Source: Escherichia phage vB_EcoP_S523 | DNA: 39,825 nucleotides | Sequence record: MH031343 | Strand: one strand, 5' to 3' | Shown: piece after piece, positions 1-39,825 of the stretch | How positions within the stretch are numbered: the first letter of the stretch is position 1 | Layout: each line of letters begins with the position of its first letter | The notes under the pieces: model-generated | Database searches by the model: none | Seen by the model: only the letters and a program-made list of their open reading frames with translations | Told to the model about the DNA's origin: nothing | Translations under genes and position numbers: made by a program

Positions 1-19
1 ATGACCTTTAGTTTAACTC

Positions 20-42
20 TTTCGCAATAGTGAGTCGTATTA
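20..42 (-). promoter_or_regulatory. phage RNAP promoter (phi1.3-like), TAATACGACTCACTATTGCGAAA
   Basis: Promoter core downstream of gene 1.2, upstream (across the window wrap) of ligase gene 1.3. Confidence 0.7.
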
Positions 43-461: not shown

Positions 462-543
462 AATGTTGTTTCCTTCTGTGTAGTTAATGACAGTTAATCA
501 TGAAGGCCACCAAATGTGATGACCTTGAGTTTAACTTTCAGTG

Positions 544-6479: not shown

Positions 6480-6930
6480 ACATAAGGCACCGACTGAAGG
6501 TTAACATAAGGATAGCCAGCCATAAGGATAGACATAAGGTGTTAACTCTAAGAGGTCATAAGGTGTTAACTCTAGGGTCACTTACAGATAGGGACACAGA
6601 GAGGTCCACATATAGTATCATTAAGTCACTCTAAGCCCTATATCTAGTGGTAACACCTAGAGTTAACCCAATGTCACACATAAGGATTGACATTAAGTAA
6701 ACCATAAGTTACCATAGGGGCGCTCTCTTTGAGTGGACTGAAGGAGGCCATAGGGGGGGAAACACTTTGTATGAACTATGAGATACCCTCTCAGATTTTT
6801 CTGTAGGATTCTTAAAGGGGGTACATCAAGTCTCATAAGGTTAACCACAGAGGCTCTATCATAAGGTGAGACTACGTGAGAGACCCTAAGAGACCCTGTA
6901 GACCATAGAGAGTGGTACATAAGGGGTTAC
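6480..6930. repeat. terminal-region short repeat array (about 12 copies of CATAAGG-like motif; minus-strand CCTTATG) spanning the inferred concatemer junction
   Basis: Recurrent cataagg / ccatagg / tcataaggtgttaactcta motifs between phiOL and gene 19.5; analogous to the CCTAAAG repeats of the T7 left end. Confidence 0.55.
6771..6783 (-). other. inferred mature genome left end (minus strand begins TCTCATAGTTCAT...); terminal repeat collapsed to one copy
   Basis: Reverse complement of 6771..6783 is TCTCATAGTTCAT, followed by CCCCCCC-TATGG; resembles the recalled T7/T3 genome start TCTCA(C/T)AG... and lies between the last late gene and phiOL. Confidence 0.4.
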
Positions 6931-10829: not shown

Positions 10830-12854
10830 TTATTGGGTTTGAACTAAGATTCTCGTAGGTACAGAACTACGGTCAGCATCATTACGGAAAGTTCTCCCGT
10901 TGTTGGAGATTGTGAACTGTAACCACCCGCCCATAGAAGAGATGTAGTATGCACCGTTATCACCAATCTGAACAGGGTTCCAGCGTCCTCGAGTTTGAAT
11001 CCAGATGGTTCTCCATCGGACATCCTGTGAGAGACCTACGGATACCCCACCACCAGCGGAACCTTTCCACACCTCAGCCCAGCCAGCATTCTTACGAATG
11101 TATCGACCGTCAGCGGCACCTTGGGTTAAACGACCATTAACTAGGTTGTTCACCTCTCTTTTGTTATAGGCATGTTCACCAAGGCGTTTGTTGACCCAAC
11201 CGTCGATGTAAGAATCATACTTCTTGATGTATAAGTTACCATCTGCCGCAATCTGCCACCCCTTACTACTTGCCAATGCGCCTTGAATAGTCATTGTAAG
11301 GGCATGTTCATTACCGCCATCCCCCTTGAGTTGGATGATACCATCGTGGAAGTTGTTGCTACCCTTGGATACCATACCGATGGAGAATGCCGCCGGATAA
11401 CCATTAGAGCGTCTACCATATTGTTTAATCATAGGGTAATACACGTTGCCATCCTGATTTCCGGGGAGGCTTTGCGAGTAGGGGGCATTGTTATTCAACT
11501 GGTTTGCGAACCCTCCTGACCCAAAAGTTGACTCAGTGTAGAATCGCTCATCAGCCCTGATATACTTAGATACTCGAAGATAACCATCCATAGATACGTT
11601 CTGGTAGAACCGTGAATCATGGTGAGAGTGGAATCCACCGTAGAAATCGTGGCGTCCGTTCCCATTGGAGCGACCATCAGGCCACTTAGATGGGTCCGTG
11701 TTTGTAAACACATAGTAGTCCATGCGTTTTGGTCCGGCCTGAATCCACTGTTCCCAAACAGTCTCCTTACTGCCCTCCCCACGCCATTGGGTCCACACCA
11801 AGTCAACTGGCTGTGTACCAGCACCTTTTGCATCATTTCGCAACGTAAAGTCCTTACCAGATACTTTGCGCTTGAAGTAAACATCAGGAGCCTCAACCCT
11901 GTCGATAGCCTCAGCTAGTGAGTTCATATTACCCAACTTGTCAGCCTCAGCCTTAGCACGGTCAGCCTCACCTTTGGAGCGGTTTGCCTCAGTGTTGGCT
12001 CGGTCAGCATGTCCCTTAGCGGTCTCAACATGTGCAGCAGCTTTGGCAACCTCAGCAGCAGCTTTAGTCACTTCTCCGGCAGCACGATTGGCCTCATCAC
12101 GGGCACGATTGGCCTCAGAGTTGGAACGGTCAGCTTGCTTCTTGGCCTCAGCGACACTTGCGGTCATACTATCAGCATAACCTTTAGCTCGGTTAGCCTC
12201 AGAGTTGGAACGGTCAGCTTGCTTCTTGGACTCAACTGCTTGTTGCGTAGAGACACCTGCCTGTTGCGTTGAGCGGTCAGCTTCACGTTGAGCACGGTTG
12301 GCCTCATCACGAGAACGGTTTGCTTCCTTATTGGCCCTGTCAGCGTGTTCGTTAGCTTTTGTTACGGCATTCCATGCAGAGGATTCACGCTCTTTAACCT
12401 GCTTTAAAGGAACGGCATCATAGTCACTTGTGGCATACGCCAAGTTAACAATCTTACGACCACGAGCATCTAAGTGACCGTCATTGTTGACACCAATGGT
12501 ATCCGCAGTGAGGTCTCGTGCTTCTTCAGCAACATGCAGTGTTTGAATCTGCGAGATGTTCAGGTCATATGCACGGAGGATTGAGCCATCAGCAAGGTCA
12601 ACCAGACGATCAGTAGCCGAAGTGAATCGACGAATCTCAATCATCTGGTAGCCATCAGCGGCAGTCCACGCACGGGTAGTAGTAATTTGAGTCTTACTGG
12701 TAAAACGATAGTCCTGATTGAGAACCAGTTCTTTACGGTCTTTACCAATAAGTGTCACTTGGATGAACTTACGTGCCAGATAATCAAAGGTAATCGTGAA
12801 ATTCACGGCACCATTCAGCGGGTAAGTCATCACAGTACGAATCTTGTTAGCCAT
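10830..12854 (-). CDS. tail fiber protein (gp17), 674 aa, with extended shaft and distal domain
   Basis: N-terminal about 150 aa and C-terminal about 90 aa match T7 gp17 (FEYLARKF..VTLIG, GSAGGGVSV..SQD); central ADRxNxEANR repeats; about 120 aa longer than T7 gp17 (553 aa). Confidence 0.9.
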   Translation of the reverse strand: MANKIRTVMTYPLNGAVNFTITFDYLARKFIQVTLIGKDRKELVLNQDYRFTSKTQITTTRAWTAADGYQMIEIRRFTSATDRLVDLADGSILRAYDLNISQIQTLHVAEEARDLTADTIGVNNDGHLDARGRKIVNLAYATSDYDAVPLKQVKERESSAWNAVTKANEHADRANKEANRSRDEANRAQREADRSTQQAGVSTQQAVESKKQADRSNSEANRAKGYADSMTASVAEAKKQADRSNSEANRARDEANRAAGEVTKAAAEVAKAAAHVETAKGHADRANTEANRSKGEADRAKAEADKLGNMNSLAEAIDRVEAPDVYFKRKVSGKDFTLRNDAKGAGTQPVDLVWTQWRGEGSKETVWEQWIQAGPKRMDYYVFTNTDPSKWPDGRSNGNGRHDFYGGFHSHHDSRFYQNVSMDGYLRVSKYIRADERFYTESTFGSGGFANQLNNNAPYSQSLPGNQDGNVYYPMIKQYGRRSNGYPAAFSIGMVSKGSNNFHDGIIQLKGDGGNEHALTMTIQGALASSKGWQIAADGNLYIKKYDSYIDGWVNKRLGEHAYNKREVNNLVNGRLTQGAADGRYIRKNAGWAEVWKGSAGGGVSVGLSQDVRWRTIWIQTRGRWNPVQIGDNGAYYISSMGGWLQFTISNNGRTFRNDADRSSVPTRILVQTQ
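12112..12229 (-). repeat. in-frame direct repeat inside tail fiber shaft region (34-nt identical copies at 12112..12145 and 12196..12229, 84 nt apart)
   Basis: gcctcagagttggaacggtcagcttgcttcttgg occurs twice; encodes repeated KKQADRSNSEANRA. Confidence 0.7.
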
Positions 12855-27382: not shown

Positions 27383-27733
27383 TTAGATATTAAGACCACC
27401 GCCAGAACTACGAGCGACACTCAGAGATTTCTTACCACCAGCACGAGCTTTCTTCTTACCAGATTCGGTCTGTGCATCATCATCGGTGTCCACATCGTCT
27501 TTACTCGGTGGCTCAATAATCTGCGCAGCTACAGGAGCGGCTTGTTCAACCACCTGTACATCAGGCTTACCACCACCAGCAAGTGCACCAGCAACGCCAC
27601 CAACGACTTTACCAGCTTCCTTCCCGACCTTCTCGACTGCCTTACCAGTTTCCTTGACAATCTTCTCGACTGGCTTAGTTACTTTCTTGATAGTCTTTTT
27701 GATTTTCTTACGAATCTTTTTACCCCAACCCAT
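27383..27733 (-). CDS. gp7.3-like tail/host-range protein, 116 aa
   Basis: Lysine-rich N-terminus and C-terminus ESGKKKARAGGKKSLSVARSSGGGLNI as in T7 gp7.3. Confidence 0.8.
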   Translation of the reverse strand: MGWGKKIRKKIKKTIKKVTKPVEKIVKETGKAVEKVGKEAGKVVGGVAGALAGGGKPDVQVVEQAAPVAAQIIEPPSKDDVDTDDDAQTESGKKKARAGGKKSLSVARSSGGGLNI

Positions 27734-29566: not shown

Positions 29567-29850
29567 TACTTCACCTCACGGATAGTTGCTGGAGAAACCT
29601 TCAGACCATCTTCCGGTAACTCGGTACGAATGAACTCTCGCATACCCTGTTTGGCGGCAAATGAGATAGCACCCTCGACACCATGAGTCAGCGCTTGTAC
29701 CAGAAGTTCACGGTCACGGGGACTAATCTTCTCACCAGCCGCAGCCTTCTTAGCCAAGTGAACCAGTTCCTCAGTGAATCCTTCCTCCATCTCGGAGGTG
29801 ATTACAGCGGTGACTTCGAATGATACTTTAAAGCGTTTAGTAATAGCCAT
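29566..29850 (-). CDS. gp5.5-like protein (T7 gp5.5 binds host H-NS), 94 aa
   Basis: MAITKRFKVSFEVTA... resembles T7 gp5.5 N-terminus; position downstream of the HNH gene. Confidence 0.65.
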   Translation of the reverse strand: MAITKRFKVSFEVTAVITSEMEEGFTEELVHLAKKAAAGEKISPRDRELLVQALTHGVEGAISFAAKQGMREFIRTELPEDGLKVSPATIREVK

Positions 29851-30172
29851 GATATTTCTCCTTTGCTTCTAATGTGATGACCTTCCGCTCTCGGTTGGTC
29901 TTGATTACGTGTTCCCGCTTGGGGATACACTGTAGGTGCTCTACGTTACAGCACCCACGGTTTAGGCATAGATGGTCTATCTCATACCCTTCTGGTATCT
30001 TTCCGTGGACGTTCTCCCACACGAATCGGTGGAACATGAAAGCAACCTTCTCACCCTTGCGGGACGAGCCTATGCTATACCGGAAGTACCCATCTTTGTT
30101 CCTCTTATGGGAGACGCAGACGATACAGCCAGTCGGCATAGTGTGAAACCTAAGCGTAGCAACGCCTCCCAT
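29837..30172 (-). CDS. HNH family endonuclease (homing-endonuclease-like; same position as T7 gene 5.3), 111 aa
   Basis: His-Me finger signature FHRFVWENVHGKIPEGYEIDHLCLNRGCCNVEHLQ with flanking Cys pairs; strong RBS AAGGAGGT; wedged between DNA polymerase and gene 5.5 with a 14-nt overlap. Confidence 0.8.
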   Translation of the reverse strand: MGGVATLRFHTMPTGCIVCVSHKRNKDGYFRYSIGSSRKGEKVAFMFHRFVWENVHGKIPEGYEIDHLCLNRGCCNVEHLQCIPKREHVIKTNRERKVITLEAKEKYHGYY

Positions 30173-32298: not shown

Positions 32299-32310
32299 TG
32301 TGTTTACTCC

Positions 32311-32727
32311 TTAAAATGTTGAACGGCGATAGCCCATGAAGTTCTTAGGGTCAACCACACGCAGGTTCTTGTGGTTCAGCTTGTGATACTGAATCCCAGC
32401 GACTGTGCCCATTGCATCAATGCGAGTCACACGGGAGCACCAAATGTCTGTCCCCTCGACCTTACGGACATACCAAATGTCTGCATTGCTGGTGGAGGTG
32501 CAGAAGTCCCCAGCCTTAATGTGGGTCATCTTGTTTGCGTCGAAAGTCTGCATACCAACGCTACCACTATTGGTTACTGGTTTGACCCACTTGCCATACT
32601 TGCGGGTCCACCCTAAGTTCTTCAGGATGTGTACCGCAGAGTCACGCGCACATTCATACTCTTTGACATCAGCCAGTTCAGCTTGCAACTTAGAGATTTC
32701 AGCTTCGATTACATTACGATTACGCAT
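32311..32727 (-). CDS. gene 4.7-like hypothetical protein, 138 aa
   Basis: Position between gene 4.5-like ORF and gene 5; size close to T7 gp4.7 (135 aa); preceded by a variant phage promoter. Confidence 0.55.
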   Translation of the reverse strand: MRNRNVIEAEISKLQAELADVKEYECARDSAVHILKNLGWTRKYGKWVKPVTNSGSVGMQTFDANKMTHIKAGDFCTSTSNADIWYVRKVEGTDIWCSRVTRIDAMGTVAGIQYHKLNHKNLRVVDPKNFMGYRRSTF

Positions 32728-32735
32728 AGTGTTGT

Positions 32736-32758
32736 TCTCCCATTAGTGAGTTGAATAG
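32736..32758 (-). promoter_or_regulatory. variant phage RNAP promoter, CTATTCAACTCACTAATGGGAGA
   Basis: Conserved -11 to +6 (ACTCACTAATGGGAGA) but divergent -17 to -12; directly upstream of the gene 4.7-like ATG. Confidence 0.5.
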
Positions 32759-32767
32759 ATTTCATAC

Positions 32768-32816
32768 AAAAGTTAATCACCAAGGCCACCCGTAGATGAC
32801 CTTTAGTTTAACTCTT
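32768..32816 (-). promoter_or_regulatory. conserved ~48-nt structured element (putative RNase III processing site, R4.7-like); copy B
   Basis: aaaagttaatcaccaaggccacccgtagatgacctttagtttaactc; near-identical to the element at 39776..39825; imperfect long hairpin with internal bulges. Confidence 0.45.
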
Positions 32817-32817
32817 A

Positions 32818-32890
32818 CTCTTCACACTTGTCAGCAAGCATGTTGCCCTCAGAACTCTTCACACTTGTCAGCAAGCATGTTGCCCTCAGA
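32818..32890 (-). repeat. 37-bp tandem duplication (2 copies: 32818..32853 and 32855..32890) spanning the gene 4.5 stop codon
   Basis: ctcttcacacttgtcagcaagcatgttgccctcaga repeated back-to-back; the upstream copy encodes the last 12 codons of the gene 4.5-like ORF, the downstream copy is untranslated. Confidence 0.85.
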
Positions 32891-33154
32891 CTCCACGGCT
32901 TTACCTAGCAGAACCTGACGAACATTGTCTTCGCCTACAGCCACAGTAGCGGCTACAGCAACGGAGGCCAGCAGACGACCTGCCTGTGTGTCATCCAGAG
33001 TCACACGCTGTGTGTGCGCCTTGGTTGACTTACTGTCCTTCCAGCGGTAGACCAGAGTTACCTTGCCGTTGCGAACGTTGATGTGCACTCGGCGAGCATA
33101 CTGGTCGATGGTGTCAGACAGACGGATTGTGTTGCCGGGGAATTTAATAGCCAT
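32849..33154 (-). CDS. gene 4.5-like hypothetical protein, 101 aa
   Basis: ORF with ATG at 33152-33154; position between gene 4.3-like and gene 4.7-like ORFs. Confidence 0.55.
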   Translation of the reverse strand: MAIKFPGNTIRLSDTIDQYARRVHINVRNGKVTLVYRWKDSKSTKAHTQRVTLDDTQAGRLLASVAVAATVAVGEDNVRQVLLGKAVESEGNMLADKCEEF

Positions 33155-33347: not shown

Positions 33348-33560
33348 TTACAGGAAGAACTTGTTCAGGTCGGTTGCTTTCGCTGCAATCTTAGCAGCAG
33401 ACGTAACGCCAGCACTTGCATCTTCAGACAGTAGACGTGCCTGTTTCGCCAAGCGTTGAGCCTGTTCTGCATCCTTACGTGCCTTGTCGTTCAGACGTTT
33501 AGCTTCACGGAAGTACATTTTAACTACCAGCTTACCAAGAGTGTTGATGAATTTAAACAT
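33348..33560 (-). CDS. gene 4.3-like protein, 70 aa
   Basis: ATG at 33558-33560 with AAGGAG RBS, just downstream of a phage promoter; same length as T7 gp4.3; track ORF is an upstream extension. Confidence 0.5.
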   Translation of the reverse strand: MFKFINTLGKLVVKMYFREAKRLNDKARKDAEQAQRLAKQARLLSEDASAGVTSAAKIAAKATDLNKFFL

Positions 33561-33603
33561 TGCGATTCTCCTTAAGTGGATTGATAAGTGGGAACAGAGT
33601 GTC

Positions 33604-33626
33604 TGTCCCATTAGTGAGTTGTATTG
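33604..33626 (-). promoter_or_regulatory. variant phage RNAP promoter (phi4.3-like), CAATACAACTCACTAATGGGACA
   Basis: Promoter core inside the 3' end of gene 4, upstream of the gene 4.3-like ORF. Confidence 0.55.
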
Positions 33627-33691
33627 ATTGCTTTCTGTAGAGCGCCTGTTCGCGCTCGTTCAGTTCTTCCCACTGGTCTACCCAATGGCTA

Positions 33692-35467
<1,776 letters not shown>

Positions 35468-36121: not shown

Positions 36122-36564
36122 TTCTTCTTCACCTCTTTAAATTTATCGAATGGAACATCCTTAGAAGGCTCTTTAAGCCAATCAACTGGAATTAATTTGT
36201 CAGCAAACAGAATGCCATGCTTCTCACACCACTCGCCATAACTGGTCGGAGACCCTTTGTACAGCTTGGAGCGACTAGAAGAGAACACGATGCGCACATC
36301 AAGTTCAGGATACTGTTCACGGATAAGTAAGTGCTTCTTACGGTCGTCACTGTCCCACAGACCTTTGGTTTCCACAAAGATGCCATTAGGTAACAGGAAG
36401 TCCGGGCAATAGGTATGGTTGCTTGCAGGAACAACATATGGTACACGCCAACGCTCGTAGTCGAACTTAATGTTCTTCCCTTCGAGTTGTTTGCTTACCT
36501 TATCCTCCAAGCCAGAGCGAAAGGCACCCACACGAGTGCCTCGACCTGCATAGCCCTTAGCCAT
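36118..36564 (-). CDS. endonuclease I, Holliday-junction resolvase (gp3), 148 aa
   Basis: Colinear with T7 gp3 (VGAFRSGLEDKVSKQLE, PDFLLPNGIFVETKGLW). Confidence 0.9.
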   Translation of the reverse strand: MAKGYAGRGTRVGAFRSGLEDKVSKQLEGKNIKFDYERWRVPYVVPASNHTYCPDFLLPNGIFVETKGLWDSDDRKKHLLIREQYPELDVRIVFSSSRSKLYKGSPTSYGEWCEKHGILFADKLIPVDWLKEPSKDVPFDKFKEVKKK

Positions 36565-37262
36565 TAGAAATCACCGTCTTCGTCTTCATCGTCCTCTTCT
36601 GGTTCTTCATTCCAGCCAGAGTCGTTTTGAGGCTTGCGGGTCTGTGCTTCATCAGCTTCGTAGCCGTCTTCTTCGATTTCATCACCCCAATCGTCATCAC
36701 CACCACCGAACTCGACCAGCTTAATCAGCATCACGGAATCCAGTTGCAGCTTAACGGAAGCACCTGCCACAGCAGACCAACCGTAAGGGAACAGAGTGTA
36801 TTTAATCTTCAGTTCAGAGCCACCAGAGATAGCTGGACGCTCACCACGGATGCGCTTACCTTTGGAGTCCACGATAGCCAAGTCGATTGGTTTGTTCTCA
36901 CCAGTCTTCTTGTCAGTGAACGAGCCGTAGCACTTGAAGTTGAACGTAGTGGTTCCATCTTCGTTATCCATGAAAGGCATGTCGCCAACATATGGCTTCA
37001 GCGGTTTCTTACCCTTGACAACTTTCGGCGGGTTCGCTTCGTACTCTTCGAGTCGAGCAGCGTAGTCCGTCTCATGGGCTTCGACAATCTCGTCAATCAT
37101 CTTCTGACAGCGAGGGTCGTCGTTGGATACAGTCAGTGATACTTTGTAGACACCACGTTCGTTCTTGAAGTCACCGCTACCGAAGTCCGGCTTTGCCAGA
37201 TAGCAGTAAGGTTCAGCAATACCACGAGCGGAAGTGAATACTTTACGTTTTGCGAATGCCAT
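36564..37262 (-). CDS. single-stranded DNA-binding protein (gp2.5), 232 aa
   Basis: Same length as T7 gp2.5; conserved N-terminus and acidic C-terminal tail ending DGDF. Confidence 0.92.
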   Translation of the reverse strand: MAFAKRKVFTSARGIAEPYCYLAKPDFGSGDFKNERGVYKVSLTVSNDDPRCQKMIDEIVEAHETDYAARLEEYEANPPKVVKGKKPLKPYVGDMPFMDNEDGTTTFNFKCYGSFTDKKTGENKPIDLAIVDSKGKRIRGERPAISGGSELKIKYTLFPYGWSAVAGASVKLQLDSVMLIKLVEFGGGDDDWGDEIEEDGYEADEAQTRKPQNDSGWNEEPEEDDEDEDGDF

Positions 37263-39775: not shown

Positions 39776-39825
39776 CAAAAGTTAATCACAAAGGCCACCC
39801 GTGAAGATGACCTTTAGTTTAACTC
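39776..39825 (-). promoter_or_regulatory. conserved ~50-nt structured element (putative RNase III processing site, R1.3-like); copy A, continuing into window start
   Basis: aaaagttaatcacaaaggccacccgtgaagatgacctttagtttaactc; last 19 nt identical to window positions 1..19; lies between the phi1.3-like promoter and the ligase RBS. Confidence 0.45.

Follow-up and report, generated by a model that had tools for sequence, protein, structure and literature searches.

At the 3′ end of gene 4.5 in the phage analysed here, a short segment of DNA stands twice in direct succession, which raises the question whether this repeat is a genuine duplication or a product of assembly, how it could have come about, and whether it changes the gene 4.5 product or the signals that follow the gene. 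The sequence examined, further called the window, is 39,825 nt long and is that of a BA14-like Berlinvirus of the T7 group, as judged from its sequence, read on the reverse strand. Its best local matches are Escherichia phages ErnstBeyeler and PhiV-1 (~96%) and BA14 (92%), and over 20 kb the nearest records share ~94% identity. All genes around the repeat are carried by the minus strand, in the order 4A/B, 4.2, 4.3, a 59-aa ORF, 4.5, 4.7, and 5.

We found that the repeat consists of two perfect 37-nt copies placed head to tail with no spacer between them (window positions 32817–32853 and 32854–32890), the unit reading ACTCTTCACACTTGTCAGCAAGCATGTTGCCCTCAGA on the plus strand and TCTGAGGGCAACATGCTTGCTGACAAGTGTGAAGAGT on the sense strand. 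It was recovered in three ways, by sequence read-out, by a repeat finder, and by Tandem Repeats Finder, and according to an exhaustive scan (period 12–400) it is the sole perfect tandem duplication in the window. A chance origin is ruled out by this uniqueness and by the expectation for such a repeat, which by our own arithmetic is about 39,825 × 4^-37, i.e., ~2e-18. Imperfect repeats occur elsewhere, namely a 33-nt unit present 2.1 times in gene 7.3 (27609–27677, 83% matches) and 21-nt repeats in the tail-fibre gene 17 (11940–12065, 70–84% matches). The 37-nt unit corresponds to the final 36 nt of gene 4.5 (12 codons, SEGNMLADKCEE) and the T of the ancestral TAA stop codon. The tandem duplication claimed in the first-pass annotation is thus confirmed as two perfect adjacent copies; its wording of 36 nt plus one describes the same repeat, but is offset by one base with respect to the spacerless 37-nt pair. 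Moreover, gene 4.5 lies on the minus strand (33154..32849), which corrects the earlier description. The features of the repeat and of the gene that it terminates are the following:

32854..32890, minus strand: copy 1, translated; the last 12 ancestral codons (SEGNMLADKCEE) and base 1 of the additional Phe codon
32817..32853, minus strand: copy 2; the first 5 nt finish TTC (Phe) and provide TGA, the other 32 nt are untranslated spacer
33154..32849, minus strand: gene 4.5, 101 aa, ending in ...ADKCEEF with a TGA stop; recognised by the ORF list, PF17574, phrog_2254, and synteny with BA14 gene 4.5
32849..32851, minus strand: new TGA stop, inside copy 2, brought about by the frame shift at the junction (translation ...KCEEF*)
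32815..32817, minus strand: ancestral TAA stop, no longer used, where copy 2 ends; the lower stem of the adjoining hairpin starts with the final two bases of this TAA

The product of gene 4.5 matches the Pfam family PF17574 (TA_inhibitor, Gp4.5), named 'Inhibitor of toxin/antitoxin system (Gp4.5)', over residues 8–75 (E 5.4e-30, 103.7 bits with a cutoff of 27), and is assigned to phrog_2254. The gene is positioned 3′ of gene 4.3 and the 59-aa ORF and 5′ of R4.7, φ4.7, and gene 4.7, as it is in BA14, PhiV-1, and JSS1. T7 gp4.5 has been reported to inhibit the Lon protease and hence Lon-dependent toxin-antitoxin defence (PMC10286901, PMC11482910), a role for which both cite Sberro et al. 2013. 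Lon binding and inhibition are known for T7 gp4.5 only, and the protein encoded here is a putative Lon inhibitor.

As the length of the unit (36 + 1 nt) is not a multiple of three, the reading frame shifts at the junction, where the coding strand reads GAG-T|TC-TGA and is translated as ...KCEEF*. The extra Phe codon TTC (32854–32852) straddles the junction, and the tail of gp4.5 is changed from ...ADKCEE to ...ADKCEEF, gaining one residue. The 100-aa form without this Phe is exactly the gp4.5 of PhiV-1 (QLF85772.1) and is on record on 6 contigs. It had been stated that the extra copy follows the stop codon of gene 4.5; this is only partly the case, since the stop in use is itself created within copy 2, after the additional Phe. 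The second copy of the last 12 codons is, as also stated, essentially untranslated. The duplicated tail falls outside the Pfam domain, and the gp4.5 proteins of relatives, 76–107 aa in length, have variable tails that end in K, S, I, E, and other residues (...SEI in the BA14 type). Compared with its counterparts of 100 aa in Berlinvirus and 89 aa in T7-type contigs, the protein of the window is distinguished by its 101 aa and terminal Phe.

Three side observations concern gp4.5 tails and the new 3′ end of the gene. Two T7-like contigs of IMG/VR (L055 and L062) encode an 87-aa gp4.5 ending in ...KI* (TGA), as compared with the 89-aa form ending in ...KIDS* (TAA); the difference is suggestive of a single inserted base (+1 frameshift), and would be another natural frameshift tolerated in the tail. 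Within copy 2 we noted a mini-ORF at 32836–32812 on the minus strand (ATG CTT GCT GAC AAG TGT GAA GAG TAA, MLADKCEE), which starts 7 nt past the new TGA and 5 nt behind GAGG (GAGG-N5-ATG); this candidate mini-ORF could permit termination-reinitiation. In turn, gp2.5 and gp4 of the window possess acidic tails with a terminal Phe, ...EDEDGDF and ...EDDGQDF, respectively (36564–36653 and 33692–33781, both on the minus strand). In T7, an acidic tail with a terminal Phe is the motif for DNA polymerase binding. The likeness of ...CEEF to these tails is only superficial and comes down to two acidic residues.

Directly downstream of the repeat lie a predicted structured element, a phage promoter, and an intact gene, and a close relative of the structured element spans the two ends of the window:

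32768..32816, minus strand: R4.7-type hairpin, 49 nt, whose lower and upper stems are separated by an internal loop; presumably processed by RNase III
32736..32758, minus strand: φ4.7 phage RNA polymerase promoter, CTATTCAACTCACTAATGGGAGA; the homologous site of BA14 is annotated phi4.7
32311..32727, minus strand: gene 4.7, 138 aa, intact downstream neighbour
39776..39825, continuing at 1–21, minus strand: R1.3-type hairpin, sharing 94% identity with the R4.7 element across 52 nt

The R4.7-type hairpin has a minimum free energy of -21.5 kcal/mol, and the AA of the former TAA opens its lower stem. A consensus drawn from 13 diverse T7-group relatives comprises 19 pairs, nine of them with compensatory changes on both sides. 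All of the collected T7-group relatives have a hairpin in this position, and T7-type contigs share the order stop, hairpin, φ4.7. No Rfam family matches the element; by position and shape it corresponds to the R4.7 RNase III site of T7 and is presumed to be a cleavage site. Like the T7-group RNase III sites R4.7, R1.3, and R1.1, it is a two-stem hairpin with an internal loop, followed by a class II promoter. In the predicted folds, its pairing is identical in transcripts with two copies and with one copy of the 37-nt unit, and the extra copy just re-forms a small local hairpin that copy 1 already makes. An effect of the duplication on 3′ processing, as earlier surmised, is not borne out by these folds. 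What sets the site apart from the other putative R4.7 sites of the T7 group is the distance between the gene 4.5 stop in use and the AAGGTC core of the hairpin, which amounts to 45 nt here versus 7–20 nt in 69/69 relatives.

The R1.3-type hairpin sits upstream of gene 1.3, and a weaker related copy is found upstream of gene 1.1, in the R1.1 position (492–539, minus strand). The R4.7 and R1.3 elements share the exact 23-mer AGATGACCTTTAGTTTAACTCTT; such a likeness is uncommon between distinct processing sites, and its length suffices to mislead short-k assemblies. The "duplicated structured element" mentioned in the first-pass annotation as lying next to the repeat is this R4.7-type hairpin with its twin R1.3. 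The variant promoter mentioned there is likewise real: the core of φ4.7, CTCACTAATGGGAGA, equals the consensus at 15/15 positions, and its upstream half reads TATTCAAC where the other promoters have AATACGAC (eight promoter sites were found in the window, 0.37 being expected by chance). The variant is not a result of the duplication, since it is ancestral, invariant in four relatives, and present as phi4.7 in BA14. We determined that no terminator-like site is created by the duplication and that the search for sigma-70-like sites at this position gives a single hit, which is at chance level. Together with the unchanged fold, these results rule out disruption of the hairpin and the birth of a new terminator or promoter.

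In the alignment with ErnstBeyeler, PhiV-1, JSS1, and BA14, all four relatives have a gap of exactly 37 nt opposite copy 2, with both flanks well aligned. The duplication was detected in none of the 55 GenBank phage records that include this locus (spans of 112–114 nt versus 149 nt here), no perfect tandem repeat was present within 200 nt of the gp4.5 stop in any of 69 IMG/VR relatives, and all six contigs with an identical 59-aa neighbour gene encode the 100-aa gp4.5 and lack the duplication (0/6); these GenBank, IMG/VR, and contig sets overlap and are not independent samples. An inherited lineage feature is ruled out by the three counts. A degenerate 31-nt pattern of the junction had no match in IMG/VR, GTDB genomes, and JGI metagenomes, and the 101-aa gp4.5 had no exact match in a 15-billion-protein index or in a gene index. 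Neither did the gp4.7 of the window find an exact-protein match, and there is no near-isogenic comparator. On the sequences searched, the duplication is private to one sequence. The comparison of copy number among relatives proposed in the first-pass annotation gives a single copy in every one examined. Its reading is upheld in that the duplication is derived and affects the 3′ terminus of what is, by its PF17574 match, a true homologue of gene 4.5.

Beyond this locus, 44/44 BA14 genes with a counterpart in the window are intact in a single frame, and three further differences from BA14 were noted. The tail-fibre gene 17 is 68% identical to that of BA14 and 19 aa longer, a divergence which suggests that the host range may differ. 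A 111-aa ORF between genes 5 and 5.5 (29837–30172, minus strand) carries an HNH-like motif, EIDHLCLNRGCCNVEHL, and gives a weak 40% match to the BA14 HNH gene '2.8'. The BA14 gene lies between 4.7 and 5, a site which is empty here (32299–32310), and the 111-aa ORF is presumed to be a homing endonuclease at a different insertion site. In addition, the gene 4.2-like ORF inside gene 4 (33553–33972, minus strand) encodes 139 aa versus 120 aa in BA14 and extends across the φ4.3 promoter region into the beginning of gene 4.3.

As for the origin of the repeat, the endpoints of a period-37 event share 0 nt of microhomology in the ancestral sequence. The only nearby 4-nt repeat, GAGT, is found at offset 36, spans exactly both endpoints, and predicts an in-frame duplication of 36 nt. 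Since there is no microhomology at period 37, one-step slipped mispairing is not supported, and classical slippage in one step is ruled out for the 37-nt event, so that the "slipped" alternative offered earlier lacks support. Junctions without microhomology are unusual among spontaneous duplications and deletions of T7. The adjective "recent", used in the same place, is weakly constrained: gene 4.5 differs from that of PhiV-1 at 10/301 positions, from which we estimate that an event as old as the PhiV-1 split would be expected to show ~1.2 differences between the copies, with a probability of zero differences of ~0.3, i.e., identical copies would be met in ~30% of cases even at that age. Nor does the locus look like a recombination hot spot, as no other rearrangement is seen at the site in any relative.

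The state of the assembly bears on whether the repeat exists in the phage at all. The window is an uncurated raw assembly, reverse-complemented and circularly permuted, in which the terminal repeat has been collapsed: where BA14 has two 194-bp terminal repeats, there is a single copy at ~6590–6783. Positions 1–19 equal positions 39807–39825 (ATGACCTTTAGTTTAACTC), which makes a 19-nt end overlap, and with this overlap removed the window ends close colinearly on the φ1.3/R1.3 region of BA14. The true genome is probably ~40.0 kb, as estimated from this arrangement. The contig is broken within the 23-mer AGATGACCTTTAGTTTAACTCTT, which has just one further exact copy, ending a single base away from the duplication. 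A break within a 23-mer shared by R1.3 and R4.7 shows that the assembly graph was ambiguous at that repeat and is a reason for caution.

The most serious objection to a genuine duplication is that it arose as an artefact of assembly or consensus calling, or as a minority variant raised to the consensus, in a population that is wholly or mostly single-copy; unmerged overlaps, a mis-resolved graph loop, or chimeric reads could each lead to it. We regard this as unlikely, though far from negligible. The permuted raw contig with its collapsed terminal repeat and 19-nt end overlap speaks for it, as do the 23-mer at both the break and the flank of the duplication, where the assembler evidently met a repeat, the absence of the duplication from every other sequence, and the perfect identity of the copies joined without microhomology. 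In its perfect short direct repeat with no counterpart in relatives, the locus also resembles the terminal k-mer overlaps that arise as artefacts when phage assemblies are circularised. Yet such artefacts lie at a contig end or join and have the length of the assembler overlap, whereas the duplication is tandem and interior, 6.9 kb from the contig end, and measures 37 nt as opposed to the 19 nt at the ends. Moreover, the junction ...CCCTCAGA|ACTCTTCAC... can come out of a de Bruijn assembler only if it is present in reads, and with the neighbouring repeat it has at most a 7-nt string in common. The 44 genes contain no further indel or frameshift, and a random hit in a mostly coding genome would rarely cost only one residue. 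If the duplication is genuine, it could also have been built in two steps, by a 36-nt in-frame slippage at GAGT, which would yield a protein of 112 aa carrying its 12-aa tail twice, and by a subsequent insertion of one T at the junction. Such a course is favoured by the ancestral GAGT at offset 36, exactly across both endpoints, and by the junction GAGT|TCTG, which equals the 36-nt product and one T; the insertion would restore a near-wild-type gp4.5 end and would be compatible with a near-neutral private duplication. However, it needs two events where one is enough, a single nonsense substitution would be a likelier compensation than an insertion right at the junction, and there is no 36-nt intermediate among relatives (55 GenBank records, 69 IMG/VR loci), which makes it an improbable history.

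That the change is adaptive seems very unlikely to us. Such an advantage might stem from the shift of gene 4.5 termination by ~35 nt away from R4.7, so that ribosomes would no longer melt the lower stem, from the acidic-plus-Phe C-terminus acquired by gp4.5, or from termination-reinitiation at the mini-ORF MLADKCEE. The first possibility is in line with the stop-to-core spacing, which in all 69 relatives is short, with the stop usually overlapping the lower stem; the second with the series gp2.5 ...GDF, gp4 ...QDF, and the new gp4.5 ...CEEF; and the third with the GAGG-N5-ATG that copy 2 places 7 nt beyond the TGA. Still, no other isolate shares the duplication and there is no sign of its spread or recurrence, the predicted fold of the hairpin is unchanged, the tail is highly variable and outside the conserved domain, the likeness of CEEF to the replication-protein tails amounts to two acidic residues only, and all three mechanisms are conjecture. 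A selected regulatory change, in which the 32-nt spacer would uncouple 4.5 termination from R4.7, or the acidic-Phe end or the mini-ORF would be functional, is hardly to be expected; if true, it would mean altered processing or stability of the 4.5/4.7 messages.

We consider it likely, with good confidence, that the repeat is a genuine tandem duplication of 37 bp, private to this strain of a BA14-like Berlinvirus and nearly neutral under selection; its neutrality is inferred. In this genuine duplication, one replication or repair accident would have taken the closing 36 nt of gene 4.5, with the first base of TAA, and inserted a copy of them head to tail, presumably through a microhomology-independent template switch or end-joining, and fork stalling at the adjacent hairpin possibly helped. 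The resulting gp4.5 is the PhiV-1 allele with one C-terminal Phe, and the remaining 32 nt of copy 2 with the old TAA form a 3′-untranslated spacer before the unaltered R4.7 hairpin, φ4.7, and gene 4.7. Apart from a gene 4.5 3′UTR longer by 37 nt, no functional consequence would be expected. The survival of the duplication may be explained by its position, probably one of very few sites where an out-of-frame duplication of 37 nt harms neither a protein nor the hairpin. The stop abuts the hairpin and the tail is variable and outside the domain; a boundary at the hairpin edge is thus what selection would leave. Several points weigh against this neutral duplication: the stop-to-hairpin spacing of 45 nt is outside the range of the 69 relatives, the duplication is carried by one sequence only, the assembly graph was ambiguous at the flanking 23-mer, and the junction lacks the microhomology usual in T7.

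Small tandem duplications have been described in evolved T7 lines, one of 154 bp, including φ13, and one of 13 bases (PMC3737178). The 154-bp event, which doubled a promoter, was considered to affect regulation (PMC3737178). The duplication found here is similarly short, perfect, head-to-tail, situated within or bordering on an intergenic regulatory region, and confined to a single lineage. In contrast to the 154-bp case, only a coding tail is doubled, and the hairpin and the promoter remain single-copy. It also differs from the evolved lines in that it comes from a natural isolate or assembly and not from a tracked line, and in its junction without microhomology. By every feature that can be tested on sequence, gp4.5, the R4.7-type hairpin, and φ4.7 are ordinary family members, and the duplication is a new instance of a known mutation type.

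For annotation, the stop of gene 4.5 should be given as the junction-made TGA and the product as 101 aa, and the downstream copy is not to be called a gene. For quality control and strain typing, the locus offers a 37-bp length polymorphism that is easily checked by PCR. The biological weight of the finding is small, as it adds one more small tandem duplication in the T7 group, in an almost certainly harmless position. It nevertheless serves, on a modest scale, as a natural experiment that asks if the overlap conserved between the gene 4.5 stop codon and the R4.7 hairpin is of importance.
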